A stretch of 21,427 bases of DNA from Perkinsela sp. CCAP 1560/9 (lineage: Eukaryota; Protista; Euglenozoa: Kinetoplastea). The stretch's first letter is position 1. Each line of letters starts with the position of its first letter. The stretch is from assembly GCA_965644495.1 (NCBI GenBank), contig CBFFSA010000083.1, positions 1 to 21,427 of the forward strand, in the 5' to 3' direction. Position numbers and translations under genes: made by a program. Shown in pieces: positions 1 through 19,400 of this stretch. Below the pieces are notes generated by a model, which ran no database searches, was not told the DNA's origin, and saw only the letters and a list, made by a program, of their open reading frames with translations.

Positions 1-483
1 ATCTGTTGTTCTCATCACGTGTCCCTCTCGAGGTGTTGCTTGCCTGGAGGCCTTCTCTCCAATGGCATTACCCATCTTCTTCAATACTATGCCTCCTCTG
101 ACTTCCTGATTATCTTTTCAGACGCCTTGCTGTTAAGCTTGTTGTCTAATACGCTTTCCTTTGCGAATAATCAGGACCTCCCACGTTCACTGTATTACTT
201 TAATATCATGCCATGCTCTCGGACCCCGGGAGTGCTACGCATGGCTTCCCATTTCGTCATGCGTGGTGTTGTCTTCTGGCTAAGGCAAACCATCGACCAC
301 TCCGACAAGCAAATTTTCGAGGCTCAATCACTTCGGCTTTCGCCTACGGCCTAATATCTCCCTATCTACGCTTAACCAACTGTGTTACCACAGCTCGCCC
401 AAGACTCAGTACGGTGTGTAGTGGGCTCTACTTCACCGGCGGTACTTTCAACCGCTAGTAATACAGCGCTTCGTGGCGCGCAC
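1..483 (-). mobile_element. Group II intron, 5' part (domains I-III and start of DIV); RT ORF and DV/DVI expected beyond the left edge
   Basis: Minus strand starts GTGCGC at 483 (GUGYG consensus). It contains typical bacterial IIB-like motifs: GCGAAAGC hairpin, TGAGCCTCGAAA, CCGGGGTCCGAGAGCATGGCATG, GAACGTGGGAG, and a DIII-like AAGTCAGAGGAGGCATAGTA...GAAG...GGTAATGCC...GGAGAGAAGG. Confidence 0.85.
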
Positions 484-677
484 CAAACATTAGCTTATCA
501 TCTGCTGCTTTAGTCGATCAGTTTAGTGGAATTATGAGTCAACAGAGTGGTATGGAGGAAGAACCTGAATCTTCACTAGTCATTCAAGGAGAGCAAAGTA
601 GCAAAGAGAAGTCGGACTCGCCGACGCAACCGCAACAACAACCTAAGCTAACGCGAAGATCCTCGTCAACGATTCCT
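484..677 (+). pseudogene. Fragment of a low-complexity S/E/Q/P-rich protein gene, bounded on the left by the antisense intron
   Basis: The frame of ORF 534-722 is open from the intron boundary (NISLSSAALVDQFSGIMSQQSGMEEEPESS...RRSSSTIP). No family recognised. Confidence 0.3.
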
Positions 678-851
678 CTGCGTGCTAAGTATGCTATTTG
701 TAAAACTGCAGATATGACCTAGGTTTGCACAAATCTATTTTATTTCGTACAGTGCTACGTATAGACCAGTTCAAACGAGCACGGGTTAACCACAATATCG
801 CTGGCTTACCAGCCACGCACACTCATGTGCTTTAGTTGCTAAAGTACGTAG
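678..851. mobile_element. Possible internally deleted IS remnant or MITE
   Basis: Imperfect terminal inverted repeats: CTGCGTGCT at 678 versus CTACGTACT (reverse complement ending at 851). No TSD and no ORF. Confidence 0.22.
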
Positions 852-1052
852 TTTTTAGAGGATTGGTAATTTTAAGGCAAGAAATTAGAAAAAATCGCCA
901 AAATTTAGCAAACTGAAATCAACGAATCGTCCCCCAAGCCCTCTGTATTACTAAGTGCTTTTTTTTTCAAGCTCAGATTTAGTTATAGAAACCACCATGG
1001 CCATCTAGGATTGGCCATCCTCGAATATGAAACTCCTTTTGTGCATAATACC

Positions 1053-1193
1053 CCAGCACCGAGTCCGACGTATTCATTGCAGGCTAGAGGCAATCAAGCG
1101 AGACTCAGTCAACCGATTCCGGTAATTTACGGCAGACACATTGTCTATCCTGATTTAGCCAGCACACCCTATGCACATTATGCCAACAATGAA
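1053..1193 (+). pseudogene. Phage tail-tip (TipJ/host-specificity J-like) gene, N-terminal fragment, 5'-truncated
   Basis: PAPSPTYSLQARGNQARLSQPIPVIYGRH is a typical J-like N-terminal motif. It joins in frame to the sequence after 2891 once the IS and one TSD are removed. Confidence 0.8.
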
Positions 1194-2886
1194 CCTAAAT
1201 TCCTCAGTTGAAAGAAGCTGTATAATGGCTTGAGCTTATAGAATAAGGGATTATGCAATGAAAATGTTACGGCCAAGTATTCACCCCGAGGGTGAAAGCT
1301 CTAGTCAAGCAGTTGAGGCCAAAGAATTACCATTAGAAGTAGATACCTATGCAGGCAAGCTGCATGTTGAATGGGATCCGGACGCATCGGTTACGCCGTT
1401 TGGTCAGTTACCATTTTTTATCGACTACTTGAAACTGGGTCACCGCTTTTTACCGTGGGTAGAAGATTGCCCTCTGGAATACACCAGTAATAACGCACCA
1501 GAAAAGGTAGATGTGCTAGGGTCTTTGTTTTTATCAGTGCTGTCAGGTCATACTCGCTATGCCCATATGAAAATGCTGGCAAATGACCGAGTGAATAGAG
1601 AGTTACTAGGCATGAACAAAATAGTCAGTGATGATTCTGCACGCCGTGCGTTAAAAAAGATTGAAGAAGCAGAAGGAATTGCGTGGATGCAACGTCACTT
1701 ATATTCAACCTGTGAACCATTGCTAACAATGCCGTGGATACTAGATGTCGATACAACAATCAAACCGATTTACGGTCATCAAGAAGGAGCAAAGATTGGT
1801 TATAACCCAAAGAAATCAGGGCGTCCATCGCATACCTATCATACGTACATGATAGCGAACCTTCGCTTGGTATTAGAAGTTTGTGTTAAAGCAGGTAACG
1901 AAAGTCAATCGAGTCATTCATTAGAAGGGCTGATTGAGTTGCTGGATAAAATACCATTGGGTAGTAAACCGTATTTAGTGCGAGGAGATTGTGATTGGGG
2001 AACAAATACAATCATGGAAGAATTAGAGTCGCGGGCCAAGGTTATTTGTTCAAGTTAAAGAAATCAAAATACGTGCAAGAGCTGATAATTAAGCATCATG
2101 GTGCCGGCGAATGGACTACCCTTGACTCAGATTGGGAAGCTAAAGAAGCGACATTGCAACTATCGAGTTGGAACAAAACTCGTCGAGTTGTTATTGTAAG
2201 ACAGAAGTTGTCTACGTCAAGAGATACGATTGCGTTAGAGCATGAAGAAAGTGGTCAGCAACAATTATCATTTGTTGAAAGACCAGAAGATTTAAAATTA
2301 TTTCGTTACTCAGTTTTGATAACCAATAGAGATGACGACTTGGTTAGTGTGGTTTGCCATTATCGTGATAGAGCGGATTGTGAAAACCAATTTGATGAAA
2401 TTAAAAACCAATGGGGCTGGGGAGGTTATACCACGTCTGATTTAAAGAGCAGTCAGTTGATGTCGAGGATGATTGCTCTGATTTATAATTGGTGGACGTT
2501 GTTTGTTAGATTAGCTAATCCAGATAATCATTTTGAAGCCATTACATCACGCCCACTGTTATTGAGTAGTGTGGGTAAGTTAACCCAGTCAGGGCGACAA
2601 AAGAAAATGCTATTGACCAGTCAACATGGTTCTGCTCATAAAATAAAACACTATTGTCAGCGGATTGTTAGCTTTTTTTACGTCACTTAAGCGTATTGCG
2701 CCGCAGTTGACCCCTCAGGAATGCTGGAAAGCCATTTTGATGAAAGCAACCGAGAAATTTAACTGGAAAAATCAGACTGCTGTTCCTCTGTTGCTACCCG
2801 CGCCAGGATAAATTGCAAAAGGAAGATATTTTTTCAAATTTTCCTGGAAAAATACTACGCCGGGAGAATCAACTGAGGAATTTAGG
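1194..2886 (+). mobile_element. IS1380-family insertion sequence
   Basis: Perfect 18-bp TIRs CCTAAATTCCTCAGTTGA (1194-1211 and 2869-2886). 5-bp TSD ATGAA (1189-1193 and 2887-2891). Encodes a DDE transposase. Confidence 0.92.
1258..2811 (+). pseudogene. IS1380-family DDE transposase with two frameshifts
   Basis: Motifs LDVDTT..YGHQEGA..GYNP, VRGDCDW and YRDRADCENQFDEIK. Frameshifts at ~2033 (ESR/GQGYLFK) and in the T7 run 2673-2679. The shifted frame continues SFFTSLKRIAPQLTPQECW...LLLPAPG to a stop at 2811. Confidence 0.85.
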
Positions 2887-2888
2887 AT

Positions 2889-4565
2889 GAACAATACCTC
2901 TATCAGTTACATTGCATTGGCCAAGGTGAATACGACATTGAAAGTATTCGTATTGAAGATACGCCCATTAGTGCCTTTGCTGAAATCACGTATGAAGTGG
3001 TGCCGCCTGGCAGTCAAGTTACCTCATTCTCACCGAATGTCATCACCGCACCGGAAATCGCGGGTCAAGAATTGTTATCAACCAGTGATGGGGGCGGTTA
3101 CGTTGGTGGCTTTGTGGTGAACCCAGCGGATACCACTGCAACAGAATTAAGCATCGACATTATCATGCCACGAGGATTGTACTATGCCAATGATGGTGGT
3201 GGTTTAGATGCACGCACCATAACGTGGATTGTTGAGGCAAGACAAATTAATGATGAAGGTAATCCATTACAGGATTGGCAGCGCTTAGGCAGTGAAACCA
3301 TGACAGCCGCTACCAATACGCCACAACGGTTAACCTATCATTATGTTGTTGCGCCAGGGCGTTATGAAGTCAGGCTACTCAGAACCAATAATAAAGATAC
3401 GTCAGCTCGTAGTGGCAATGAATTACGTTGGGCAGGATTGAAAGCTACGCTTAATCAACGTGTTGAGTTGGGTAACGTCACGTTGCTCGCCATTAAAATG
3501 CGTGCCACCGATAACTTATCACAGCGTGCCTCGCGATTAGTGAATTGCATTGTTACGCGCAAGTTACCAACGTGGAATAGAGAAACAGGTTGGAGTGCAC
3601 CCAAGGCAACACGCTCAATTGCTTGGAGCTTAGCGGATATTGCAAAAAATGAATACGGTGGTAACTTGCCTGATAGCCGTATTGATTTACAAGCGTTAGC
3701 GAACTTAGATGCGATATGGCAACAACGCAATGATTTTGTGGATGTAGTATTTGACCAACCGATTACCGTGTGGGAAGCGATGACACGTGTTGCTCGTTGT
3801 GGGCGAGCAGTATGTTTTATGCAAACGGGGATTGTGCGGTTTGTTAGAGACGAGCCAAGAGAAATTCCAGTTGCCCTATTCTCACCACGCAATATTGTTA
3901 AGCACAGTTTGAAGTTGCAATACTTACTTGCTAGTGATGATACCGCTGACAGTGTCATTGTTGAATATTTTTGTAACCAAACTTGGCGACCCGATGAAGT
4001 GGAAGTGAGTTTACCTAACAGCACCAGTGAACAACCGGCAAGAGTGAGATTATTAGGCTGTACCGATAAGAGTCAAGCCATACGTGAAGGCAAATACATG
4101 GCAGCCACCAATCACTATCGCAGGCGTCTTGTTACCTTTCAAACAGAGCTAGAGGGATTGATACCAACCTATGGTGATTTAATTGCGATTACGCACGACA
4201 TGCCAAGCTGGGGACAAGGGGCTGAAGTCGTTAGCGTTGATGGTAACACGTTAACTTTATCGGAGCCATTAACGTGGGATGAAGATAAACTGGATGAACA
4301 TGTTATTGGTCTTCGCAAGCAAGATGGTAGTGTCAGTGGCACGTATCAAGTGTTACCAAGTAATAATGCTAATCAAGTCATCATTCAAGGTGACTTTGAT
4401 TTCAAACCCTATACCGGTGAATCACAAGAGCGCACACATGTGGCCTTTGGTGTTGGCAATGCGTGGAGCACATTGGCTCGCGTTACCGCTGTGCGTCCTA
4501 GAGGAGATATCATTGAAATTAGTGCCGTTACCGAACATCCAGTCGTGCATAGTTCAGATGTGTAA
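2889..4565 (+). pseudogene. Phage tail-tip/host-specificity J-like protein, C-terminal part of the IS-interrupted gene
   Basis: Open frame EQYLYQLHCIGQGEYD... leading into the 522-aa ORF, with GRYEVRLLR, ATRSIAW, VRFVRD, FSPRNIV and QAIREG motifs characteristic of lambdoid J-like tail proteins. Confidence 0.85.
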
Positions 4566-4576
4566 CCTTCTTACGT

Positions 4577-4933
4577 TTAATCAACATGTTTACGTTCACC
4601 CAGAGATTGAGCAATCATAGAAATAACCAATGTATTTAAACTAACACCATCTAATTTGGCTTGTTGAGCTAAACGTCTGTGTAATGATTTAGGCGCACGC
4701 TGCACCCATCTGCCGCTGGCGGTCGTTAAATCATTTGGACTTGGAATATCACGATTGGCTTCTTTAGCGGCTTCAATCCAGCACTGTACGGCATCGATTC
4801 CATTTTCAATGGTTTCCTCAACTGTTTCACCATCAGACATACAGCCAGGCAAATCAGGAAATTCAATCAAATATCCACCACCTTCTTCCTTGGAGAGATG
4901 GCGTACAGTAAACGGGTAATCAAGCTCTTTCAT
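4577..4933 (-). CDS. hicB: HicB-family antitoxin with C-terminal ribbon-helix-helix
   Basis: EEGGGYLIEFPDLPGCMSDGETVEE motif plus SGRWVQRAPKSLHRRL...GVSLN. Confidence 0.93.
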   Translation of the reverse strand: MKELDYPFTVRHLSKEEGGGYLIEFPDLPGCMSDGETVEETIENGIDAVQCWIEAAKEANRDIPSPNDLTTASGRWVQRAPKSLHRRLAQQAKLDGVSLNTLVISMIAQSLGERKHVD

Positions 4934-5175
4934 GACAAGGTATCTCCAATAAATTAATCAAGGCAACAAACTTTTTAATATAAACAGGCTTTACTGGCCG
5001 ATGAGCAGGGACACATAGCAATTCTATCCAAGCAGGATGGTTAAATACCACGTGACTACCTTTGCCCTTTCTCACATTAATACCATAATGCTTAGCCACT
5101 GTTTCCAGTTGCTCAATCCTCCAATCCCGAGGATTTTCGTTCATTTTTTTTGATGATTTTGCTAGCATTTCTCAT
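4920..5175 (-). CDS. hicA: HicA-family mRNA interferase toxin (start 5168, or 5175 if the T8 run carries an extra base)
   Basis: NPRDW...GKGSHVVF.H...VPAHRPVKPVYIKK motif. Overlaps the hicB start. Confidence 0.88.
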
Positions 5176-5183
5176 AATCATGC

Positions 5184-5205
5184 ATGATACTGCATATAGT
5201 ATCAT
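5184..5205. promoter_or_regulatory. Palindromic operator upstream of hicA (putative HicB site)
   Basis: ATGATACT-gcatat-AGTATCAT, a perfect 8-bp inverted repeat just upstream of the hicA start. Confidence 0.6.
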
Positions 5206-5246
5206 TTGTCCAGCTTTTTTATATCAATGACAGAGGAAACTTGCCC

Positions 5247-5549
5247 ATGACGAGCAATAACACTGAGCCATCTAACGATGGCATCACACTATCACAGGCA
5301 CAGCTTGACGAATTAATTGAAAGAGCCTCAACACGTGGCGCACGCAAAGCGCTTATTGAAATGGGTTTGATGGATGATACGGTCAATGACCTGCGTACAC
5401 TGCGAGGGCTAGCAAAAACCCTCAAGACGATGCAACACACGTTTGTGCAAACGATGGTGCGTTGGTTAACCATCGGCATGTTGGTGCTATTTTTCGCGGG
5501 GATTTCTGGGAAACTCGATTCACTATTTCACTTAAACAATAGCAAATAA
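5247..5549 (+). CDS. DUF6127-like small phage membrane protein
   Basis: GAGGA RBS. LDELIERASTRGARKALIEMGL...DLRTLRGL motif with a C-terminal TM helix. Located downstream of the tail gene. Confidence 0.7.
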   Translation: MTSNNTEPSNDGITLSQAQLDELIERASTRGARKALIEMGLMDDTVNDLRTLRGLAKTLKTMQHTFVQTMVRWLTIGMLVLFFAGISGKLDSLFHLNNSK

Positions 5550-5600
5550 ATAAGGAATAATAGGATGGTAACCTTACTAGCTACATTGGTGGGTTTTATA

Positions 5601-6164
5601 GTCCTCTAAATGGTTAAAACCCCCGTCTTCCAGACGGGAAAATCTTCAGATCTTGTTGTATGATGTGGGCATGGGCAACTATACGCACAGTCACCATACG
5701 GTCTACCACCATCGATACCACATTGTTTGGGTAACGAAGTATCGTTATAAAGTTTTGCAAGGTGAGCTACGTCTTCGCGTTCGTGCTCTTGTAGCGCAAG
5801 TAGCTGAGGAAATGGGGGTTGAAATACTCAATGGAGTATTGTCAACAGAGCACATCCATCTTTTTGTTAGTATTCCACCGCATATTTCAGTAAGTGATTT
5901 TGTTAAAAAGGCAAAGGGTCGTTCATCGCGCAAAATCCAGCAAGAGTTTCCTAGTATTCGCAAACGCTATTGGGGCAGGCATTTTTGGGGTCGTGGATAT
6001 TTTAGTAGCACAAGTGGCAATGTAACAGATGATATCATTAATGCTTACATTGATAATCATGTTGATGCTCATAAAGTGGATTATGAATCGAATATGTCTT
6101 TAGACTGATACCGGCTTCAGCCTAGATCTCCAACCCACCAACTTCTAGTTGGTGGTGGTTGAGT
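5601..6164 (+). mobile_element. IS200/IS605-family element (tnpA only)
   Basis: Subterminal hairpins CCCGTCT-tcc-AGACGGG (5622-5638) and CCACCAACT-tct-AGTTGGTGG (6135-6155). Inserted after TTTTATA with no TSD. Ends inferred from restoring the host frame, so +/- a few nt. Confidence 0.88.
5671..6108 (+). CDS. tnpA: Y1 HUH transposase TnpA
   Basis: YHIVWVTKYR, HIH (HUH), KGRSSR, FWGRGYF, and catalytic Tyr in INAYIDNH. Confidence 0.93.
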   Translation: MGNYTHSHHTVYHHRYHIVWVTKYRYKVLQGELRLRVRALVAQVAEEMGVEILNGVLSTEHIHLFVSIPPHISVSDFVKKAKGRSSRKIQQEFPSIRKRYWGRHFWGRGYFSSTSGNVTDDIINAYIDNHVDAHKVDYESNMSLD

Positions 6165-6592
6165 TCTTCAGCTTTTCCTGACATGTTAAAACTTGTCAGA
6201 GACAGAGCCGACAGGAAACATGAGCTAGCAATCTTGGACAGGCAGCTTGAAGCACAACGTGAAGGCCATGTTCAGCGTTTAGAAGAAATTGAAGTGCAAG
6301 CTGACATGGCTGAAAGCAAAGCACTGTATCAACATGCCAGTCTTCCAAGTCATGTAAAGTGGGTCGAAGCCTTGCGTGCATCGGTAAGGCCGGTAATAAC
6401 GTATGCGTTCTTTGCTTTGTTTGTCTTTGTTAAAGTGATGGCATTAATTGCATTACTGCAACAAGGGTTCACAATAGTAGACAGTGTGTTAACGATTTGG
6501 GACGATGAAACGCAAGCGTTATTTGCGGCAGTAATGGCCTTCTGGTTCGGGCAGCGCAGCGTCACAAAATCCCGTCAATTGCATCAGTGATG

Positions 6593-6649
6593 ACTGCTTA
6601 AATAAATAGGCATAAATGACTGGCTATGTTTTCGATAGTAAGCGTTAAT
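6593..6649 (+). repeat. 57-bp direct repeat, copy 1 (probable promoter/regulatory module)
   Basis: 52/57 identical to 7144-7200 by manual alignment. Lies ~35 bp upstream of ORF 6684. Confidence 0.85.
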
Positions 6650-6683
6650 GGTGATAAGAAAACATTTACTGGAGATTAAAGCC

Positions 6684-6995
6684 ATGAACACAAACGCAAA
6701 CACTTGCCACGTTAACATCACTATGATTGAAAATCCTGATGATAATTGCACACAAAGCGAAGTAAACGCCCTTATTACAGTATTTCGAGATGCACTCACC
6801 TGCATTGTTCCTACTCGCGCTAGCGAAGTGTGGATAAACCTAGGTGATTCTACCACAACACCCAAAAACGTTAAGGACTTTCAAGTGCGTTTAGGACGCT
6901 GTGAGCGGTTTGCCGGAAAACCGGAAAAATGGGCAGGGGAATTTACTACCGCCAGCAAGAAAGTTACCTTGATTGCACGAATAGATAATCACTAA
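6684..6995 (+). CDS. Hypothetical protein (103 aa)
   Basis: GGAG RBS at 6671, ATG at 6684, followed by a terminator. No recognised family. Confidence 0.65.
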   Translation: MNTNANTCHVNITMIENPDDNCTQSEVNALITVFRDALTCIVPTRASEVWINLGDSTTTPKNVKDFQVRLGRCERFAGKPEKWAGEFTTASKKVTLIARIDNH

Positions 6996-7013
6996 TTGTC
7001 TCTCCTTGAGTTT

Positions 7014-7053
7014 GGCAACAGGCGCCTAATGTTGGCGTTTGTTGCCCTTTTTT
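7014..7053 (+). terminator. Rho-independent terminator
   Basis: GGCAACAGGCGCC / GGCGTTTGTTGCC stem followed by C-T6. Confidence 0.75.
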
Positions 7054-7143
7054 ATTGGGTTAAACCCAATCTCCCCTACTCCATCACCAAGCCCTGTAAA
7101 GCCGATTATTCCAGCCACATTAATGGTCTGCACATCAGCGATA

Positions 7144-7200
7144 ACTGCTCGAATAAATAGGCATAATTGACTGGCTATGTCTTCGATAGTGAGCGTTAAT
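7144..7200 (+). repeat. 57-bp direct repeat, copy 2
   Basis: Matches 6593-6649. Ends 8 nt before the retroelement junction. Confidence 0.85.
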
Positions 7201-7208
7201 TACAACGT

Positions 7209-8505
7209 AAGGGTTTCCTGTCTCCATAGGTCCGAGTACTCTTGTTCCGCCCAACGCTGCATGCATTTATACGCATGTGAGGCATATGCCATGTGGCCTT
7301 TGCGGCCCCCTCGATGCGGAGCTGGTAAAACGCATTTGGGAAGCATGGCCAGAAGCGTCCATGCCTGTAAGGAGTTTTCAGAGACCGCGTTCCGAATGGC
7401 GGAGGAGAGGATTTCTTCCCAGATCTGGCGGCAACGATAAGGCACGTCTTTGCACGTACTCAGCTGAAGAGAGCAGACAGAAGGAAGAGGTGGGAGCTCA
7501 AAGTTGGTGTTCTCTGGTGTTGGTGCGGTGCTCACTTCGTTGGGTGGAGTAAGAAGTTCGGGAGAAAGGAGCGCAACGGTTTTCGTTCCTTTGCAGCTGT
7601 GTCTGTGCGATGATCGTTTGTGGTTGTCGTAGTGGCGTCCGCATGAGGTGCATAGAAAACGGCCTTCTCTGTACCACCATTCATTAGGGATGCTGTTACC
7701 GTGCCGGCATGCGACATGGTTATAGAAGGCTTGCCAGGATCCGCCATGCGACGGACTGCGCCATGAACATCCCTGGGCCGGGCACTCTCGGAGCGCGGCA
7801 GACTTTCCTTGGGACAATGAGTTGGGCTCAGCGAGGCTAACGCCAGCGTTTTCAATATTCTGGGTTTCGTGTCTTCTTCCTGGTTGCTCTTGAGATGGAC
7901 CCGGAATAAGTTCATAAGGATGCAAGAGTGAAGGTGTCTCTGGGTCTACCCGGTATCGGATGAGCTTATTTCTCCGTGGAGTAGGGGTTTTCTTGGAGTG
8001 ACCTTTAATGTCCTCATTGCTACGTGCTTGGGCGGATAGAGCAGTTTTGAGTGGTGTACTTAGATGCTGTGTAGCATTCAAAGCCTCTTTCGTCTTCTTC
8101 GCTGGCGTTACTTGCCTGATAACAGCGGAGTGTTGCATCTCTTCATTTTCGACCTCCGTGTGACCTGTGTCCGGTGTTTCATTAATCCCACCTACGATCG
8201 CGTTCGTTCGGCGGATCCAATCTTCAGGAATATTCTGAGGGATGGGGGTCGTGTAAAGGTCTTCATGGTATGTGCTCGTCCCCGTGAATAAATGTTCGTT
8301 TCCTTTAAATTGGTCCCAAGACCCCGGTCGGTGAGTTCTGCCATTAATTTCTAAGCATTTGTCGTCCGTCTCCATGGCTTCGGCTTCGTGGTCCGGATTT
8401 CCGCTGTTGTCGATTATGGGAGGAAGTGTGTCTGCGGGGGGGGTGATACCAGACATAAAAATTAACCCGTACCTCGGAAAGAGATGAAATAGAAAAAATT
8501 CAACA
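7209..8505 (-). mobile_element. Retrotransposon copy 1: 5' portion only (zinc fingers), 3'-truncated at the bacterial junction
   Basis: Matches the other copies down to ...LWRQETL, then reads into bacterial sequence (stop at 7200-7202). Confidence 0.93.
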
Positions 8506-11500
8506 TTTTTTTTTTTTTTTTCTTACTTACTTTCCTACTTACTTTACTTCGCCCTTATCAACTTCGCCCGCTTCTCTCCCTTATCTCCACCCCCCCAAAG
8601 AAACCATCCGTGACTTCCCGACTTCACCCGCTTCTTTCCCTCACTTCCCCCCCCCGAGCATCCATCCGCGCCTTCCAAACTTTGCCCTCCTCTTTCCCTC
8701 ACTTCCCCCCAGAAATCAATCCGCGCGTGCTCCACCCCTTCTTCCAGCAGTGCGCGCTTCGGACCGGGTCTCTCGACCTCTCCACGGCCTGGCTTGGGAA
8801 CCCTTCCCTTGTTATGCGGGAGGGCGCAGGCGCGGGCATGTGCCGACAGCGGCACGGTCACGAAGTTGGGTTTTGATCGCCGGATTCGGATGAATGTTCC
8901 GAATCCATACCTGTCTCACATTGGGGTACCTTGCTCGTGAAAGCGAGGCGTGAGGATAGGCACTGTCGGCTCGATCGGCCTCGGGCCGCTCTGGAGGCTA
9001 TTCCTCCAGAGTTGCGATGGGGTCTTCGGAAGGTGAACGAGAAACCATCATGCGCGCTTGAAAGCGCATAAGGGTTATGTTTAGTTCAGCGAAGATTCGG
9101 CTCGTTGCCTCACCTTCCGAAAGTAGACCCCCCGAGGCGTGCGAACACCTCTCACCGACTTTGCGGAGCACGGCTGAAGCGCTGGGGCTCCAGGCGCCAT
9201 AACTTTCGACAACCATGGCCGTAAAGTCGCATCCTGCTTCTACGGCTTCTCGACGCTGCTTGCCCTTCTCCATTGAGGAATAATGTTCGGCAAATGACCC
9301 CGCGGCAACCCAGCTAGCGTTTCGGACTTTGTCCGTATATTTTAATTGCTGAGCATGGGTGACCGCGAAGTAAAGCACAATGGGATTTCCAAGAAAAAGG
9401 CTGGGCAAGTATATGTCGCCAGGTCTGGTGAGGGCCCCGCCTGGGCCCCTGTTCCCGAGACTCTTTTCTCGTTGAGGGGCGAGGCGGGCTCGACTGCACA
9501 CGTCCGCGAACTGGTCCGTAACAGCGTTGTGCCTGGTCACAATACCATGGCCATGTTTGCAAGACAGTGCATGGTCCCCTTTGCTGTCAAGGGGGAGCGA
9601 GCATTTCGGCATGGGGCACGTGCTATCTTCATGGTAGATGTCCACGCCTAACCACCAACGGGCCAAGGTTCGGAATTGTGTGGGGGTAAAGGCGTGCCCA
9701 AGGTCTTTCGAAGGAGTCACAAAGGCCCAGCTGCTCGCTCCCGTGCCACACTGGGAGATCCACCTTGCACGGGTTCGTGCGTCAGTTGTCTCATATTCCT
9801 GGGAAAAGGCATGGGCTGCAATAGCATAACTGATTACCCGCTGGCGCGGGATCTTCCCTTTCGGCCACTGTGGGGGTAACATGTCCTGGCATTCTTCAGA
9901 ACCGTAGAGGGGAGTCGAGAGTGGGTAGGCATCCGTGGGTGTGTTGGCCGTGCGGGAAGTCGTACGAAGAATATATCCCGGAGGCTCGTCCGGGGGGTGA
10001 GGATCATTCCCTGGCGGAGGGCGCCTTCTCTTCCGGTAGGAGTACGGCGCGCTCAGGGCCTTCTCGCATGGGGCGTTGGGAGTTGTGAGAACACGACCTC
10101 GGGGATCGAGGAGAGCAGTGCCGGCCTTCTGATTGATGTCGAGGATGGCCTCCGAGAAACCTTCAGCGTCTGTGGGATCCCAGGAATCTGTGGCAGAGGC
10201 AAAGGCGACGGATGCAACGTAAGCCGCGGAGGCGTGGAGGGCTGCGGATCTCAGACCTAATCCACCATGACGCTTCAGTCGCTGTGCTTGAGATTGTGCT
10301 GACCTGTCAAGAGGACAGATGATTGCCTCTATAGCGGTCATGAGAAAGTCGTCTAAACGGGAGCAAAGGTGAATCAGGGACTGTGGGGGCGTGCTTCTCA
10401 TGGCATACACCATTTGACAGAACCCCGCACATTGACGAATTAGGGCAAGCGCGACCTGGGGGTCCTGAATGTTGGTGATGGCATCGAGGGTATCCTCGGC
10501 TGGTTCTAGGGCGTGAGAAAGAAGATAAGCAGAGCAGTGGTCGGCGGATCCTACAGGACTCCCTAGTATGTCAAAGTTCCCCTGCGAATTGATCTTCTCG
10601 TCGGGTATGTCTGGGAAGTAATCAGCCTGGTGGGCCGAGCTGGGGGAAGTAATAATTTCGCATTTCGACGTATTGAGATGCAAGCCCCATTGAGGTCCTA
10701 CTCGGGCGATCGTGTCTAGGGCGTCTCTAACTTCCTGCGCCTGGCCAACGAGGACGCCATCGTCGAGATACCAGAGTTGGGCGGGAATATCAGTTTGAAG
10801 GTTAATGGCTTCTGAGAGCTCCAGGGCCACTAACGAGAAGAGCAATGGTCCTAGGGGATCGCCCTGTTGTACTCCTTCCTCGGAGGAGATGAATCGGGCC
10901 CCGTAGGTAAGAGAGCTGGGGTCGGAATAGCACCAATTGATCCAAGGGAAGAGTTCCGGGAAATATTCCTGTACTAGTGGAAGGAAGGCAGCCCTGCTTA
11001 CGTTATTGAAAGCGTTACGTAGGTCCACTTTGCACATGACGAAGTTCGGGTTTTCCATATTGGACGACATGGCCAGGCGACACATGTGAATGACTCTTTC
11101 GGCCCCGGCTGGCGCTGCCACTCCGTACTGTTTGCCTTCAAAGAGCTCGCTCGCTTTGGGTCGGATTGCGTTGCATACGGCTTTGCTCGCTAATCGCCGA
11201 AGGGTTTCCTGTCTCCATAGGTCCGAGTACTCTTGTTCCGCCCAACGCTGCATGCATTTATACGCATGTGAGGCATATGCCATGTGGCCTTTGCGGCCCC
11301 CTCGATGCGGAGCTGGTAAAACGCATTTGGGAAGCATGGCCAGAAGCGTCCATGCCTGTAAGGAGTTTTCAGAGACCGCGTTCCGAATGGCGGAGGAGAG
11401 GATTTCTTCCCAGATCTGGCGGCAACGATAAGGCACGTCTTTGCACGTACTCAGCTGAAGAGAGCAGACAGAAGGAAGAGGTGGGAGCTCAAAGTTGGTG

Positions 11501-12496
11501 TTCTCTGGTGTTGGTGCGGTGCTCACTTCGTTGGGTGGAGTAAGAAGTTCGGGAGAAAGGAGCGCAACGGTTTTCGTTCCTTTGCAGCTGTGTCTGTGCG
11601 ATGATCGTTTGTGGTTGTCGTAGTGGCGTCCGCATGAGGTGCATAGAAAACGGCCTTCTCTGTACCACCATTCATTAGGGATGCTGTTACCGTGCCGGCA
11701 TGCGACATGGTTATAGAAGGCTTGCCAGGATCCGCCATGCGACGGACTGCGCCATGAACATCCCTGGGCCGGGCACTCTCGGAGCGCGGCAGACTTTCCT
11801 TGGGACAATGAGTTGGGCTCAGCGAGGCTAACGCCAGCGTTTTCAATATTCTGGGTTTCGTGTCTTCTTCCTGGTTGCTCTTGAGATGGACCCGGAATAA
11901 GTTCATAAGGATGCAAGAGTGAAGGTGTCTCTGGGTCTACCCGGTATCGGATGAGCTTATTTCTCCGTGGAGTAGGGGTTTTCTTGGAGTGACCTTTAAT
12001 GTCCTCATTGCTACGTGCTTGGGCGGATAGAGCAGTTTTGAGTGGTGTACTTAGATGCTGTGTAGCATTCAAAGCCTCTTTCGTCTTCTTCGCTGGCGTT
12101 ACTTGCCTGATAACAGCGGAGTGTTGCATCTCTTCATTTTCGACCTCCGTGTGACCTGTGTCCGGTGTTTCATTAATCCCACCTACGATCGCGTTCGTTC
12201 GGCGGATCCAATCTTCAGGAATATTCTGAGGGATGGGGGTCGTGTAAAGGTCTTCATGGTATGTGCTCGTCCCCGTGAATAAATGTTCGTTTCCTTTAAA
12301 TTGGTCCCAAGACCCCGGTCGGTGAGTTCTGCCATTAATTTCTAAGCATTTGTCGTCCGTCTCCATGGCTTCGGCTTCGTGGTCCGGATTTCCGCTGTTG
12401 TCGATTATGGGAGGAAGTGTGTCTGCGGGGGGGGTGATACCAGACATAAAAATTAACCCGTACCTCGGAAAGAGATGAAATAGAAAAAATTCAACA
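8506..12496 (-). mobile_element. Retrotransposon copy 2 (CRE-clade-like, RLE-type non-LTR)
   Basis: 49-nt leader, single ORF, ~480-nt 3' UTR, GTAA repeats, A16 tail (8506-8521). Confidence 0.92.
8998..12447 (-). CDS. 1149-aa zinc finger-RT-RLE polyprotein (probably defective)
   Basis: C2H2 finger CPAQGC..HVACRH and CCHC finger CTSC..HRHSC. RT motifs VDLRNAFN, GVQQGDPLGPLLF, WYLDD (YLDD at 10759-10770), GLHLNTSK, ILGSPVG and GGLGL. Knuckle CPMPKC..HALSC, then RHN, RPGDI and VVESYGAW. Confidence 0.92.
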   Translation of the reverse strand: MSGITPPADTLPPIIDNSGNPDHEAEAMETDDKCLEINGRTHRPGSWDQFKGNEHLFTGTSTYHEDLYTTPIPQNIPEDWIRRTNAIVGGINETPDTGHTEVENEEMQHSAVIRQVTPAKKTKEALNATQHLSTPLKTALSAQARSNEDIKGHSKKTPTPRRNKLIRYRVDPETPSLLHPYELIPGPSQEQPGRRHETQNIENAGVSLAEPNSLSQGKSAALRECPAQGCSWRSPSHGGSWQAFYNHVACRHGNSIPNEWWYREGRFLCTSCGRHYDNHKRSSHRHSCKGTKTVALLSPELLTPPNEVSTAPTPENTNFELPPLPSVCSLQLSTCKDVPYRCRQIWEEILSSAIRNAVSENSLQAWTLLAMLPKCVLPAPHRGGRKGHMAYASHAYKCMQRWAEQEYSDLWRQETLRRLASKAVCNAIRPKASELFEGKQYGVAAPAGAERVIHMCRLAMSSNMENPNFVMCKVDLRNAFNNVSRAAFLPLVQEYFPELFPWINWCYSDPSSLTYGARFISSEEGVQQGDPLGPLLFSLVALELSEAINLQTDIPAQLWYLDDGVLVGQAQEVRDALDTIARVGPQWGLHLNTSKCEIITSPSSAHQADYFPDIPDEKINSQGNFDILGSPVGSADHCSAYLLSHALEPAEDTLDAITNIQDPQVALALIRQCAGFCQMVYAMRSTPPQSLIHLCSRLDDFLMTAIEAIICPLDRSAQSQAQRLKRHGGLGLRSAALHASAAYVASVAFASATDSWDPTDAEGFSEAILDINQKAGTALLDPRGRVLTTPNAPCEKALSAPYSYRKRRRPPPGNDPHPPDEPPGYILRTTSRTANTPTDAYPLSTPLYGSEECQDMLPPQWPKGKIPRQRVISYAIAAHAFSQEYETTDARTRARWISQCGTGASSWAFVTPSKDLGHAFTPTQFRTLARWWLGVDIYHEDSTCPMPKCSLPLDSKGDHALSCKHGHGIVTRHNAVTDQFADVCSRARLAPQREKSLGNRGPGGALTRPGDIYLPSLFLGNPIVLYFAVTHAQQLKYTDKVRNASWVAAGSFAEHYSSMEKGKQRREAVEAGCDFTAMVVESYGAWSPSASAVLRKVGERCSHASGGLLSEGEATSRIFAELNITLMRFQARMMVSRSPSEDPIATLEE

Positions 12497-15400
12497 TTTT
12501 TTTTTTTTTTTTTCTTACTTACTTTCCTACTTACTTTACTTCGCCCTTATCAACTTCGCCCGCTTCTCTCCCTTATCTCCACCCCCCCAAAGAAACCATC
12601 CGTGACTTCCCGACTTCACCCGCTTCTTTCCCTCACTTCCCCCCCCCCGAGCATCCATCCGCGCCTTCCAAACTTTGCCCTCCTCTTTCCCTCACTTCCC
12701 CCCAGAAATCAATCCGCGCGTGCTCCACCCCTTCTTCCAGCAGTGCGCGCTTCGGACCGGGTCTCTCGACCTCTCCACGGCCTGGCTTGGGAACCCTTCC
12801 CTTGTTATGCGGGAGGGCGCAGGCGCGGGCATGTGCCGACAGCGGCACGGTCACGAAGTTGGGTTTTGATCGCCGGATTCGGATGAATGTTCCGAATCCA
12901 TACCTGTCTCACATTGGGGTACCTTGCTCGTGAAAGCGAGGCGTGAGGATAGGCACTGTCGGCTCGATCGGCCTCGGGCCGCTCTGGAGGCTATTCCTCC
13001 AGAGTTGCGATGGGGTCTTCGGAAGGTGAACGAGAAACCATCATGCGCGCTTGAAAGCGCATAAGGGTTATGTTTAGTTCAGCGAAGATTCGGCTCGTTG
13101 CCTCACCTTCCGAAAGTAGACCCCCCGAGGCGTGCGAACACCTCTCACCGACTTTGCGGAGCACGGCTGAAGCGCTGGGGCTCCAGGCGCCATAACTTTC
13201 GACAACCATGGCCGTAAAGTCGCATCCTGCTTCTACGGCTTCTCGACGCTGCTTGCCCTTCTCCATTGAGGAATAATGTTCGGCAAATGACCCCGCGGCA
13301 ACCCAGCTAGCGTTTCGGACTTTGTCCGTATATTTTAATTGCTGAGCATGGGTGACCGCGAAGTAAAGCACAATGGGATTTCCAAGAAAAAGGCTGGGCA
13401 AGTATATGTCGCCAGGTCTGGTGAGGGCCCCGCCTGGGCCCCTGTTCCCGAGACTCTTTTCTCGTTGAGGGGCGAGGCGGGCTCGACTGCACACGTCCGC
13501 GAACTGGTCCGTAACAGCGTTGTGCCTGGTCACAATACCATGGCCATGTTTGCAAGACAGTGCATGGTCCCCTTTGCTGTCAAGGGGGAGCGAGCATTTC
13601 GGCATGGGGCACGTGCTATCTTCATGGTAGATGTCCACGCCTAACCACCAACGGGCCAAGGTTCGGAATTGTGTGGGGGTAAAGGCGTGCCCAAGGTCTT
13701 TCGAAGGAGTCACAAAGGCCCAGCTGCTCGCTCCCGTGCCACACTGGGAGATCCACCTTGCACGGGTTCGTGCGTCAGTTGTCTCATATTCCTGGGAAAA
13801 GGCATGGGCTGCAATAGCATAACTGATTACCCGCTGGCGCGGGATCTTCCCTTTCGGCCACTGTGGGGGTAACATGTCCTGGCATTCTTCAGAACCGTAG
13901 AGGGGAGTCGAGAGTGGGTAGGCATCCGTGGGTGTGTTGGCCGTGCGGGAAGTCGTACGAAGAATATATCCCGGAGGCTCGTCCGGGGGGTGAGGATCAT
14001 TCCCTGGCGGAGGGCGCCTTCTCTTCCGGTAGGAGTACGGCGCGCTCAGGGCCTTCTCGCATGGGGCGTTGGGAGTTGTGAGAACACGACCTCGGGGATC
14101 GAGGAGAGCAGTGCCGGCCTTCTGATTGATGTCGAGGATGGCCTCCGAGAAACCTTCAGCGTCTGTGGGATCCCAGGAATCTGTGGCAGAGGCAAAGGCG
14201 ACGGATGCAACGTAAGCCGTGGAGGCGTGGAGGGCTGCGGATCTCAGACCTAATCCACCATGACGCTTCAGTCGCTGTGCTTGAGATTGTGCTGACCTGT
14301 CAAGAGGACAGATGATTGCCTCTATAGCGGTCATGAGAAAGTCGTCTAAACGGGAGCAAAGGTGAATCAGGGACTGTGGGGGCGTGCTTCTCATGGCATA
14401 CACCATTTGACAGAACCCCGCACATTGACGAATTAGGGCAAGCGCGACCTGGGGGTCCTGAATGTTGGTGATGGCATCGAGGGTATCCTCGGCTGGTTCT
14501 AGGGCGTGAGAAAGAAGATAAGCAGAGCAGTGGTCGGCGGATCCTACAGGACTCCCTAGTATGTCAAAGTTCCCCTGCGAATTGATCTTCTCGTCGGGTA
14601 TGTCTGGGAAGTAATCAGCCTGGTGGGCCGAGCTGGGGGAAGTAATAATTTCGCATTTCGACGTATTGAGATGCAAGCCCCATTGAGGTCCTACTCGGGC
14701 GATCGTGTCTAGGGCGTCTCTAACTTCCTGCGCCTGGCCAACGAGGACGCCATCGTCGAGATACCAGAGTTGGGCGGGAATATCAGTTTGAAGGTTAATG
14801 GCTTCTGAGAGCTCCAGGGCCACTAACGAGAAGAGCAATGGTCCTAGGGGATCGCCCTGTTGTACTCCTTCCTCGGAGGAGATGAATCGGGCCCCGTAGG
14901 TAAGAGAGCTGGGGTCGGAATAGCACCAATTGATCCAAGGGAAGAGTTCCGGGAAATATTCCTGTACTAGTGGAAGGAAGGCAGCCCTGCTTACGTTATT
15001 GAAAGCGTTACGTAGGTCCACTTTGCACATGACGAAGTTCGGGTTTTCCATATTGGACGACATGGCCAGGCGACACATGTGAATGACTCTTTCGGCCCCG
15101 GCTGGCGCTGCCACTCCGTACTGTTTGCCTTCAAAGAGCTCGCTCGCTTTGGGTCGGATTGCGTTGCATACGGCTTTGCTCGCTAATCGCCGAAGGGTTT
15201 CCTGTCTCCATAGGTCCGAGTACTCTTGTTCCGCCCAACGCTGCATGCATTTATACGCATGTGAGGCATATGCCATGTGGCCTTTGCGGCCCCCTCGATG
15301 CGGAGCTGGTAAAACGCATTTGGGAAGCATGGCCAGAAGCGTCCATGCCTGTAAGGAGTTTTCAGAGACCGCGTTCCGAATGGCGGAGGAGAGGATTTCT

Positions 15401-16489
15401 TCCCAGATCTGGCGGCAACGATAAGGCACGTCTTTGCACGTACTCAGCTGAAGAGAGCAGACAGAAGGAAGAGGTGGGAGCTCAAAGTTGGTGTTCTCTG
15501 GTGTTGGTGCGGTGCTCACTTCGTTGGGTGGAGTAAGAAGTTCGGGAGAAAGGAGCGCAACGGTTTTCGTTCCTTTGCAGCTGTGTCTGTGCGATGATCG
15601 TTTGTGGTTGTCGTAGTGGCGTCCGCATGAGGTGCATAGAAAACGGCCTTCTCTGTACCACCATTCATTAGGGATGCTGTTACCGTGCCGGCATGCGACA
15701 TGGTTATAGAAGGCTTGCCAGGATCCGCCATGCGACGGACTGCGCCATGAACATCCCTGGGCCGGGCACTCTCGGAGCGCGGCAGACTTTCCTTGGGACA
15801 ATGAGTTGGGCTCAGCGAGGCTAACGCCAGCGTTTTCAATATTCTGGGTTTCGTGTCTTCTTCCTGGTTGCTCTTGAGATGGACCCGGAATAAGTTCATA
15901 AGGATGCAAGAGTGAAGGTGTCTCTGGGTCTACCCGGTATCGGATGAGCTTATTTCTCCGTGGAGTAGGGGTTTTCTTGGAGTGACCTTTAATGTCCTCA
16001 TTGCTACGTGCTTGGGAGGATAGAGCAGTTTTGAGTGGTGTACTTAGATGCTGTGTAGCATTCAAAGCCTCTTTCGTCTTCTTCGCTGGCGTTACTTGCC
16101 TGATAACAGCGGAGTGTTGCATCTCTTCATTTTCGACCTCCGTGTGACCTGTGTCCGGTGTTTCATTAATCCCACCTACGATCGCGTTCGTTCGGCGGAT
16201 CCAATCTTCAGGAATATTCTGAGGGATGGGGGTCGTGTAAAGGTCTTCATGGTATGTGCTCGTCCCCGTGATTAAATGTTCGTTTCCTTTAAATTGGTCC
16301 CAAGACCCCGGTCGGTGAGTTCTGCCATTAATTTCTAAGCATTTGTCGTCCGTCTCCATGGCTTCGGCTTCGTGGTCCGGATTTCCGCTGTTGTCGATTA
16401 TGGGAGGAAGTGTGTCTGCGGGGGGGATGATACCAGACATAAAAATTAACCCGTACCTCGGAAAGAGATGAAATAGAAAAAATACAACA
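12497..16489 (-). mobile_element. Retrotransposon copy 3
   Basis: A17 tail at 12497-12513. Near-identical to copy 2. Confidence 0.92.
12991..16440 (-). CDS. 1149-aa zinc finger-RT-RLE polyprotein
   Basis: As copy 2, with four substitutions (T>I, F>I, A>S, A>T). Confidence 0.92.
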   Translation of the reverse strand: MSGIIPPADTLPPIIDNSGNPDHEAEAMETDDKCLEINGRTHRPGSWDQFKGNEHLITGTSTYHEDLYTTPIPQNIPEDWIRRTNAIVGGINETPDTGHTEVENEEMQHSAVIRQVTPAKKTKEALNATQHLSTPLKTALSSQARSNEDIKGHSKKTPTPRRNKLIRYRVDPETPSLLHPYELIPGPSQEQPGRRHETQNIENAGVSLAEPNSLSQGKSAALRECPAQGCSWRSPSHGGSWQAFYNHVACRHGNSIPNEWWYREGRFLCTSCGRHYDNHKRSSHRHSCKGTKTVALLSPELLTPPNEVSTAPTPENTNFELPPLPSVCSLQLSTCKDVPYRCRQIWEEILSSAIRNAVSENSLQAWTLLAMLPKCVLPAPHRGGRKGHMAYASHAYKCMQRWAEQEYSDLWRQETLRRLASKAVCNAIRPKASELFEGKQYGVAAPAGAERVIHMCRLAMSSNMENPNFVMCKVDLRNAFNNVSRAAFLPLVQEYFPELFPWINWCYSDPSSLTYGARFISSEEGVQQGDPLGPLLFSLVALELSEAINLQTDIPAQLWYLDDGVLVGQAQEVRDALDTIARVGPQWGLHLNTSKCEIITSPSSAHQADYFPDIPDEKINSQGNFDILGSPVGSADHCSAYLLSHALEPAEDTLDAITNIQDPQVALALIRQCAGFCQMVYAMRSTPPQSLIHLCSRLDDFLMTAIEAIICPLDRSAQSQAQRLKRHGGLGLRSAALHASTAYVASVAFASATDSWDPTDAEGFSEAILDINQKAGTALLDPRGRVLTTPNAPCEKALSAPYSYRKRRRPPPGNDPHPPDEPPGYILRTTSRTANTPTDAYPLSTPLYGSEECQDMLPPQWPKGKIPRQRVISYAIAAHAFSQEYETTDARTRARWISQCGTGASSWAFVTPSKDLGHAFTPTQFRTLARWWLGVDIYHEDSTCPMPKCSLPLDSKGDHALSCKHGHGIVTRHNAVTDQFADVCSRARLAPQREKSLGNRGPGGALTRPGDIYLPSLFLGNPIVLYFAVTHAQQLKYTDKVRNASWVAAGSFAEHYSSMEKGKQRREAVEAGCDFTAMVVESYGAWSPSASAVLRKVGERCSHASGGLLSEGEATSRIFAELNITLMRFQARMMVSRSPSEDPIATLEE

Positions 16490-19400
16490 TTTTTTTTTTT
16501 TTTTTTTCTTACTTACTTTCTTTACTTACTTACTTCTTACTTACTTACTTTACTTCGCCCTTATCAACTTCGCCCGCTTCTCTCCCTTATCTCCACCCCC
16601 CCAAAGAAACCATCCGTGACTTCCCGACTTCACCCGCTTCTTTCCCTCACTTCCCCCCCCCGAGCATCCATCCGCGCCTTCCAAACTTTGCCCTCCTCTT
16701 TCCCTCACTTCCCCCCAGAAATCAATCCGCGCGTGCTCCACCCCTTCTTCCAGCAGTGCGCGCTTCGGACCGGGTCTCTCGACCTCTCCACGGCCTGGCT
16801 TGGGAACCCTTCCCTTGTTATGCGGGAGGGCTCAGGCGCGGGCATGTGCCGACAGCGGCACGGTCACGAAGTTGGGTTTTGATCGCCGGACTCGGATGAA
16901 TGTTCCGAATCCATACCTGTCTCACATTGGGGTACCTTGCTCGTGAAAGCGAGGCGTGAGGATAGGCACTGTCGGCTCGATCGGCCTCGGGCCGCTCTGG
17001 AGGCTATTCCTCCAGAGTTGCGATGGGGTCTTCGGAAGGTGAACGAGAAACCATCATGCGCGCTTGAAAGCGCATAAGGGTTATGTTTAGTTCAGCGAAG
17101 ATTCGGCTTGTTGCCTCAACTTCCGAAAGTAGACCCCCCGAGGCGTGCGAACACCTCTCACCGACTTTGCGGAGCACGGCTGAAGCGCTGGGGCTCCAGG
17201 CGCCATAACTTTCGACAACCATGGCCGTAAAGTCGCATCCTGCTTCTACGGCTTCTCGACGCTGCTTGCCCTTCTCCATTGAGGAATAATGTTCGGCAAA
17301 TGACCCCGCGGCAACCCAGCTAGCGTTTCGGACTTTGTCCGTATATTTTAATTGCTGAGCATGGGTGACCGCGAAGTAAAGCACAATGGGATTTCCAAGA
17401 AAAAGGCTGGGCAAGTATATGTCGCCAGGTCTGGTGAGGGCCCCGCCTGGGCCCCTGTTCCCGAGACTCTTTTCTCGTTGAGGGGCGAGGCGGGCTCGAC
17501 TGCACACGTCCGCGAACTGGTCCGTAACAGCGTTGTGCCTGGTCACAATACCATGGCCATGTTTGCAAGACAGTGCATGGTCCCCTTTGCTGTCAAGGGG
17601 GAGCGAGCATTTCGGCATGGGGCACGTGCTATCTTCATGGTAGATGTCCACGCCTAACCACCAACGGGCCAAGGTTCGGAATTGTGTGGGGGTAAAGGCG
17701 TGCCCAAGGTCTTTCGAAGGAGTCACAAAGGCCCAGCTGCTCGCTCCCGTGCCACACTGGGAGATCCACCTTGCACGGGTTCGTGCGTCAGTTGTCTCAT
17801 ATTCCTGGGAAAAGGCATGGGCTGCAATAGCATAACTGATTACCCGCTGGCGCGGGATCTTCCCTTTCGGCCACTGTGGGGGTAACATGTCCTGGCATTC
17901 TTCAGAACCGTAGAGGGGAGTCGAGAGTGGGTAGGCATCCGTGGGTGTGTTGGCCGTGCGGGAAGTCGTACGAAGAATATATCCCGGAGGCTCGTCCGGG
18001 GGGTGAGGATCATTCCCTGGCGGAGGGCGCCTTCTCTTCCGGTAGGAGTACGGCGCGCTCAGGGCCTTCTCGCATGGGGCGTTGGGAGTTGTGAGAACAC
18101 GACCTCGGGGATCGAGGAGAGCAGTGCCGGCCTTCTGATTGATGTCGAGGATGGCCTCCGAGAAACCTTCAGCGTCTGTGGGATCCCAGGAATCTGTGGC
18201 AGAGGCAAAGGCGACGGATGCAACGTAAGCCGCGGAGGCGTGGAGGGCTGCGGATCTCAGACCTAATCCACCATGACGCTTCAGTCGCTGTGCTTGAGAT
18301 TGTGCTGACCTGTCAAGAGGACAGATGATTGCCTCTATAGCGGTCATGAGAAAGTCGTCTAAACGGGAGCAAAGGTGAATCAGGGACTGTGGGGGCGTGC
18401 TTCTCATGGCATACACCATTTGACAGAACCCCGCACATTGACGAATTAGGGCAAGCGCGACCTGGGGGTCCTGAATGTTGGTGATGGCATCGAGGGTATC
18501 CTCGGCTGGTTCTAGGGCGTGAGAAAGAAGATAAGCAGAGCAGTGGTCGGCGGATCCTACAGGACTCCCTAGTATGTCAAAGTTCCCCTGCGAATTGATC
18601 TTCTCGTCGGGTATGTCTGGGAAGTAATCAGCCTGGTGGGCCGAGCTGGGGGAAGTAATAATTTCGCATTTCGACGTATTGAGATGCAAGCCCCATTGAG
18701 GTCCTACTCGGGCGATCGTGTCTAGGGCGTCTCTAACTTCCTGCGCCTGGCCAACGAGGACGCCATCGTCGAGATACCAGAGTTGGGCGGGAATATCAGT
18801 TTGAAGGTTAATGGCTTCTGAGAGCTCCAGGGCCACTAACGAGAAGAGCAATGGTCCTAGGGGATCGCCCTGTTGTACTCCTTCCTCGGAGGAGATGAAT
18901 CGGGCCCCGTAGGTAAGAGAGCTGGGGTCGGAATAGCACCAATTGATCCAAGGGAAGAGTTCCGGGAAATATTCCTGTACTAGTGGAAGGAAGGCAGCCC
19001 TGCTTACGTTATTGAAAGCGTTACGTAGGTCCACTTTGCACATGACGAAGTTCGGGTTTTCCATATTGGACGACATGGCCAGGCGACACATGTGAATGAC
19101 TCTTTCGGCCCCGGCTGGCGCTGCCACTCCGTACTGTTTGCCTTCAAAGAGCTCGCTCGCTTTGGGTCGGATTGCGTTGCATACGGCTTTGCTCGCTAAT
19201 CGCCGAAGGGTTTCCTGTCTCCATAGGTCCGAGTACTCTTGTTCCGCCCAACGCTGCATGCATTTATACGCATGTGAGGCATATGCCATGTGGCCTTTGC
19301 GGCCCCCTCGATGCGGAGCTGGTAAAACGCATTTGGGAAGCATGGCCAGAAGCGTCCATGCCTGTAAGGAGTTTTCAGAGACCGCGTTCCGAATGGCGGA

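Follow-up and report, generated by a model that had tools for sequence, protein, structure and literature searches.

Non-autonomous derivatives of non-LTR retrotransposons, and arrays of such elements, have been described before. The R2 SIDEs of Drosophila are internal-deletion derivatives of an element with a restriction-like endonuclease (RLE), which keep both ends of the parent and occur with it in the same genome; a template jump and non-homologous joining have been proposed as their origins (PMC3414825). The MoTeR1/MoTeR2 elements of Magnaporthe, with a CRE/SLACS-like reverse transcriptase (RT), an RLE and a defective partner, form head-to-tail arrays, some of them homogeneous, which expand and contract (PMC7367193). 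Cnl1 of Cryptococcus forms non-LTR arrays of 5–80 kb with many fragments, for the growth of which recombination has been proposed (bioRxiv 2021.08.11.455996). The dead, full-length-like R2Br-deg copy of Bacillus rossius is numerous beside a functional one, and is thought to have spread by unequal recombination (PMC4370867). The trypanosomatid elements CRE1, CRE2, SLACS and CZAR consist of a single ORF with zinc-finger-like motifs, RT and RLE, and carry a poly-A tail (PMC12278014).

From position 7211 onward, the window (the whole stretch of 21,427 nucleotides analysed here) contains five head-to-tail units of approximately 4 kb on the minus strand. Three units are whole, each with an ORF of 1149 aa: copies 2 (8506–12496, 3991 bp), 3 (12497–16489, 3993 bp) and 4 (16490–20502, 4013 bp). 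Copy 1 (7211–8505) is a 5′ part cut at a join to bacterial DNA, and copy 5 (20503–21427) is a 3′ part cut by the window end. Copy 2 comprises a short 5′ leader, the ORF (8998–12447; 12991–16440 and 17004–20453 in the other two whole copies, according to the ORF list), a 3′ UTR, a (TAAG)n-like stretch and poly-A. All four unit junctions show the same 5′ start and 16–18 A at the unit end; one deviates in the TAAG stretch, which in copy 4 is 19–20 bp longer. Judging from its translation, the full-length copy P0126 appears to have about 30 more bases between poly-A and unit start. On the minus strand of copy 2 the ORF encodes two retained N-terminal zinc-finger-like motifs (11584–11775; aa 225–252, C2H2, and aa 269–288, CCHC spacing; pLDDT 80–94 in the predicted model), a retained RT core (10615–11202; Pfam RVT_1 model positions 18–194, with KVDLRNAF, QQGDPLGP and WYLDDG, by the Pfam match and alignment to P0129), and a CCHC knuckle with an RLE motif (9370–9618; by profile alignment and motif pattern).

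Two non-coding segments deserve mention. The 49-nt leader at 12448–12496 has a GAG/GT step and, ahead of the ATG, a T-rich run, which we take to recall a spliced-leader gene; an Rfam search of the element gave no match at a meaningful score, and the leader folds no better than its shuffles (z 0.2). The 3′ UTR at 8752–8870 folds better than 198 of 200 shuffled sequences (z -2.8). Its segment 8760–8864 (minus strand) also occurs in a host repeat that is far more abundant: in bin means its summed contig depth exceeds that of the element 15–60 times, and by more at single positions, its flanks there are different, and it is absent from the bacterial genome described below. A SINE-like partner, or a 3′ motif common to many sister families, is the likely explanation.

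By its architecture and by motifs, YLDD among them, which we take to be of CRE type, the array element can be classed as CRE-like, the RT tree made here containing unnamed relatives only. The named relatives of the ORF found in a protein search are eukaryotic, e.g. from Ephydatia, at ∼30–41% identity. A near-identical full-length parent, P0129, has a single ORF in which a non-LTR RT is followed by a CCHC knuckle and a PD-(D/E) endonuclease, as in RLE-type (R2-group) elements. A profile search matches R2 proteins in both RT and RLE (E 4e-31), and by fold the predicted model of P0002 best matches seven R2 structures (E 1e-21 to 5e-17); no CRE-like protein was found among the solved structures in that search. 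The zinc-finger-like motifs (aa 225–288) and the 3′ poly-A of 16–18 A are traits of the CRE clade. The consensus of the SLACS/CRE REL reads C-C-H-C-RH(D/N)-E-(R/K)PD-(D/E) (PMC12857005); residues 1112–1194 of P0129 fit a loosened form of it, three knuckle spacings (4, 9 and 8) being one outside the printed ranges, and the window copy departs from it at the final acidic position. P0004–P0021 represent at least several sister families (52–63% identity) which form one well-supported clade with P0129 in an 8-row tree, some of them lying on contigs equal in length to those of the present family, and are probably a burst of CRE-like families in one host. In P0003, a member of the family itself, the reading frame runs through into an RNase H domain (aa 890–1033), which probably belongs to another element inserted near the 3′ end.

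In the minus-strand ORF of the three whole copies, WAEQEYSDLWRQ is directly followed by ETLRRLASK. The DNA junction is identical at all four joints, at 7217/7218, 11208/11209, 15201/15202 and 19214/19215; only ETL remains past the joint in copy 1, because the array ends at 7209–7211, where bacterial DNA begins. A preliminary description of this DNA had proposed that all copies share an in-frame deletion of RT subdomains 0–2, having noted that no RT0, RT1 or RT2 motif precedes ETLRRL, and comparison with the parent bears this out. P0129 contains 1317 residues (1149 + 168), and in the alignment its residues 412–581 (170 aa) are exchanged for RQ at each of the four window junctions. In the DNA, a 4-nt filler (ACAG in the sense direction) takes the place of 508 nt, a length deduced from the protein, so that the net loss is 504 nt; the filler lies on the minus strand at 7218–7221, 11209–11212, 15202–15205 and 19215–19218 in copies 1 to 4, respectively. 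Beyond the block, P0129 and copy 2 differ at nine single residues, seven of which are common to all deleted copies compared.

The deleted block comprises RT motif 0 (SSAGTMG in P0129), motif 1 (CALSK) and the first half of motif 2 (RPIAAG), none of which is present in the window copies, and, placed by spacing alone, probably also motif -1. The RT motifs 0–7 of an autonomous element are thus incomplete. Profile alignment places the parental SSAGTMG opposite SAPGPDG of R2Tg, and CALSK...RPIAAG opposite the motif 1–2 region of R2Tg. Consistent with the loss, the match to Pfam RVT_1 begins at model position 3 in P0129 but not until position 18 in the window protein. The block contains 24 positions conserved at 85% or more. 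It is kept in 95 of the 96 proteins covering both flanks (among 120 listed of 1094 matches) and in all 59 loci that cover both flanks (of 80 distant loci); P0002 has it entirely, and P0126 and P0003 have its start and end. The sole exception among the proteins, P0001, comes from another contig and represents the same deleted form. Relatives with both flanks therefore do not naturally lack the block, the deleted form itself excepted. A joint-region search for shorter proteins with the joint returned 2 matches among 154 candidates, both of which contain block sequence.

Clustered changes in motif 0 or motif -1 of R2Bm have been reported to reduce target-primed reverse transcription to <10% and <5%, respectively (PMC4117753). 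According to a published prediction, the incoming nucleotide is bound in R2Bm by K452 and R463, while I465 stacks on the template base (PMC8857657); K570, R576 and I578 of the parent, which we mapped as their equivalents, lie inside the block, and R586 is retained. Losing these three residues together with motif 0 would disable target-primed reverse transcription. The earlier proposal that the RT lacks part of its fingers agrees with the predicted structures: the model of P0002 (mean pLDDT 89.8) contains a fingers hairpin with strands E313–320 and E324–331, both of which are absent from the model of the deleted form. The remainder of the latter folds, with a dip to pLDDT 65 just past the joint; its mean pLDDT of 75.6 is lowered by a disordered N-terminus.

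A further lesion is located in the endonuclease. The parental endonuclease motif is RPGD-x14-D, and alignment places a Tyr codon at its second acidic residue (D1194Y) at 9370–9372 in copy 2 and at 13363–13365, 17376–17378 and 21367–21369 in the other copies, all on the minus strand. The change is found in all four window copies that reach the site, leaving them without one of the two acidic residues of an autonomous element, and also in P0121, P0124 and P0125 of a second long contig. The residue is Asp in 103 of 105 aligned protein matches and in 62 of 63 loci, and in the predicted model it lies on the third endonuclease strand, as in PD-(D/E)xK enzymes. The first acidic residue, D1179, is Asp in all 104 protein matches but in 42 of 63 loci, 20 having Gly, which is probably a one-residue alignment shift. 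Point changes at such acidic residues abolish cutting in related nucleases (PMC4838377), and the D1194Y copies would thus have no endonuclease activity. The preliminary description had judged the copies probably non-autonomous; the motif loss, joined by D1194Y, makes this reading of the sequence probable.

The deleted form is not restricted to the window. Contigs of runs X1, X3 and X4 contain its joint, extending 30 letters beyond the filler on their shorter side, one under the 31-letter bridging rule, and its presence in X2 was deduced from bin depths; X1–X4 are four samples of one study under one species label. Deleted and intact forms coexist in these runs, the deleted share of contig depth being ∼0.63 in X1, 0.28–0.35 in X2, 0.30 in X3 and 0.53 in X4; these are rough shares, not copy numbers, and those of X1 and X4 are probably overestimates because their contigs run on into shared sequence. 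The second contig, of 23,767 bp, contains four N-termini, all of the deleted form, so no full-length copy was seen among these or the four window joints; no 5′-truncated copy was seen either. Three of the four ORFs of the second contig end early, two at the same residue, which may reflect decay or read error. Copies 3 and 4 carry 10 substitutions in 8006 bp, more than read error accounts for, since none is found in the 7210 bp of bacterial sequence (p = 0.002, Fisher test), and some window variants are met again in the second contig. At residues 5 and 221 the copies include all four allele pairs, a pattern that could also arise from read errors in unpolished contigs.

Positions 1–7210 match a 2.4-Mb single-contig bacterial genome (G001) without substitutions and with three one-base indels (782, 2673 and 5144). 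No match to the array unit was found in G001. The join, at 7209–7210, consists of two shared letters (AA), shows no poly-A and severs copy 1 in the middle of its ORF, and is therefore not a retrotransposition junction. The bacterial side continues as in G001 in all four runs, and the element side continues as element in X1 and X4; no piece spanning the join was present among those listed in the four runs, although a rare join could be pruned. The join is very likely a library or assembly chimera, and the fact that a window taken as bacterial holds eukaryotic repeat DNA is a warning. The join lies ∼10 bp from the deletion joint (7201–7221), a proximity of 0.5% for a random break, noticed after the fact, and the unit's only AGGGTTT, presumably a telomere-like heptamer, is situated between the two. 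A bacterial intergenic motif at 7137–7204, with ∼10 times its neighbours' depth, ends at the join; a similar stretch is found at ∼6600. The bacterial part further contains a group II intron fragment within 1–484 (Rfam RF02005, 214–448, minus strand; identical copies in G001), a phage tail (host-specificity J-like) gene at 2887–4565, split by an IS1380-like transposase at 1195–2886 and with at least 12 further copies in G001 (L001–L010 among them, 71–90% identity), and a HicAB toxin-antitoxin pair plus an IS200 element inserted between small phage genes (4577–5168 and 5595–6165). The DDE transposase reads in two frames at 1258–2690; given the one-base indels versus G001, some of these frame breaks may be read errors.

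Taken together, the array is best explained as an internally deleted offshoot of a CRE-like element, whose protein, by prediction, can neither copy RNA nor cut DNA, and which was likely built mainly by duplication and exchange at the DNA level; we put the probability of this reading at roughly 0.7. The parental breakpoints can be read from contigs of the public run X2, which depart from the window sequence at 11208 and 11213; translated, their loose ends give ENDVRPIAAG and SEAIVACRKK, with which the P0129 block ends on either side. On the sense strand the lost DNA starts with CG and ends with GT (AC...CG on the other strand), no register shift being possible, and the ACAG filler matches neither parental end, with no shared letters at the joint. 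These ends and the filler therefore make the deletion neither a GT-AG intron nor a plain microhomology deletion, the two origins that the preliminary description had suggested from a junction reading CAG|G. The letters themselves are present, but they belong to the filler and not to the parent, because a parental CAG ahead of the Glu codon would specify Gln, whereas 115 of 117 aligned homologs have Gly (G581) at this place. Cryptic splicing of the element RNA followed by reinsertion, in the manner of SpIREs, can thus be rejected, although the CAG|G letters would suit it and spliced L1 insertions have been described (PMC5860796). No template of five or more letters for the filler occurs in the 80 nt of retained flank on either side, on either strand, and no hairpin at the joint is supported by folding (z -0.2). 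A 6-letter inverted match 15–20 nt inside the lost block, spotted by eye, has a chance of ∼5% by a rough count and was set aside as filler source. The R2 RT has been reported to add 3–5 non-templated bases before a template jump (PMC4117753), and the filler fits such an addition as well as end-joining repair. The deletion would have arisen once, through break repair with filler or through an RT template jump after non-templated addition, which are not distinguishable here, and the one deleted insertion would then have expanded by unequal exchange or break-induced copying.

The array could instead have multiplied as RNA, the parent protein copying the deleted transcript in trans and inserting it at the head of the last copy, or chaining copies by template jumping. 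Both the poly-A and the 3′ UTR, which includes the high-copy folding segment, are undamaged, so that mobilisation in trans is possible; the deleted form accounts for a considerable share of the family (by contig depth, ∼0.3 to 0.6), the R2 SIDEs provide a precedent (PMC3414825), and the filler length suits the R2-type additions. We nevertheless consider multiplication as RNA rather unlikely, since 5′ starts and tail lengths are uniform at 4/4 junctions, no copy is 5′-truncated, neither array contains a parent copy, and the spacing upstream of the unit start in P0126 appears different. The uniform junctions, the lack of admixed parent copies and the presence of all four allele pairs rather point to DNA-level duplication and exchange, as proposed for R2Br-deg and Cnl1, with the limits that four junctions are few, that one of them deviates in its TAAG stretch, and that all three whole window ORFs are open. 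The open frame, as first described, is confirmed in all three whole copies, and might indicate that the deleted protein is useful, e.g. as a DNA- or RNA-binding decoy damping the active element, or that the array has a chromosomal role, the frame being kept by selection. The protein retains zinc fingers, palm, thumb and endonuclease fold, all of which model well, a domesticated scaffold would be expected to have lost both activities, and the deleted form is abundant in all four runs (by deduction in X2). If true, a protein without copying or cutting ability would have been amplified to at least a third of the family copies, as a host-serving decoy or structural array unit. Such a function is improbable, however. 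The frame would owe its openness to the youth of the copies and to a net loss, 504 nt, that is divisible by three: the prior chance that a deletion stays in frame is one in three, and 20 random substitutions leave the frame open in ∼43% of cases, so that at ∼0.5% divergence the open frame is the chance expectation, without need for selection. Six of the seven variable ORF sites among the window copies change a residue, as neutral drift predicts, and the early ends of 3/4 second-contig ORFs, if not read errors, point the same way. Between the deleted form and majority contigs, 7 replacement and 7 silent codons were counted among the differences listed, under the neutral 75% (p = 0.03); this ratio shows purifying selection somewhere on the path, which may have acted on the parent's branch. 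That deletion or array is an artefact of assembly or amplification, such as a rolling-circle concatemer, is very improbable: the window does contain one probably chimeric join, but the deletion joint recurs in contigs of three runs from different samples and in the second long contig, and the excess of substitutions among the copies, with its recurrent variants, is foreign to such an artefact. The deleted offshoot, which likely expanded at the DNA level, provides a clean natural case of a dead element that spread alongside its parent and whose two breakpoints are known, and P0129 with its 1149-aa counterpart forms a ready comparison for the role of the motif -1/0/1/2 block in a CRE-like enzyme; its significance would grow only if expression of the crippled protein, and selection on it, were demonstrated.

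Although the described systems share several features with this locus, each differs from it in organization. Like the R2 SIDEs, the array element has an internal deletion, both ends and a parent in the same genome, but the SIDEs are short and lie singly in their rDNA target (PMC3414825), whereas the array element loses ∼11% of its length, keeps a frame of 1149 aa and forms its own tandem array. The RT region of MoTeR2 is replaced by unrelated DNA and its units are spaced by telomere repeats (PMC7367193), while a TAAG-rich stretch and poly-A separate the units here. Cnl1 arrays contain many full-length copies (bioRxiv 2021.08.11.455996), unlike the window array. R2Br-deg, which no longer has its ribozyme, is carried along by rDNA units (PMC4370867); here the element itself is the unit. 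CRE1, CRE2, SLACS and CZAR insert in spliced-leader RNA genes with target duplications (PMC12278014), and the window holds no host flank of the element. Among the titles and abstract openings listed in a literature search there was no in-frame-deleted tandem non-LTR element, which does not prove that none has been reported. In its combination of an internal deletion with retained ends and of a defective partner in head-to-tail arrays, the array element works like the R2 SIDEs and MoTeR2, and is of a kind already known.
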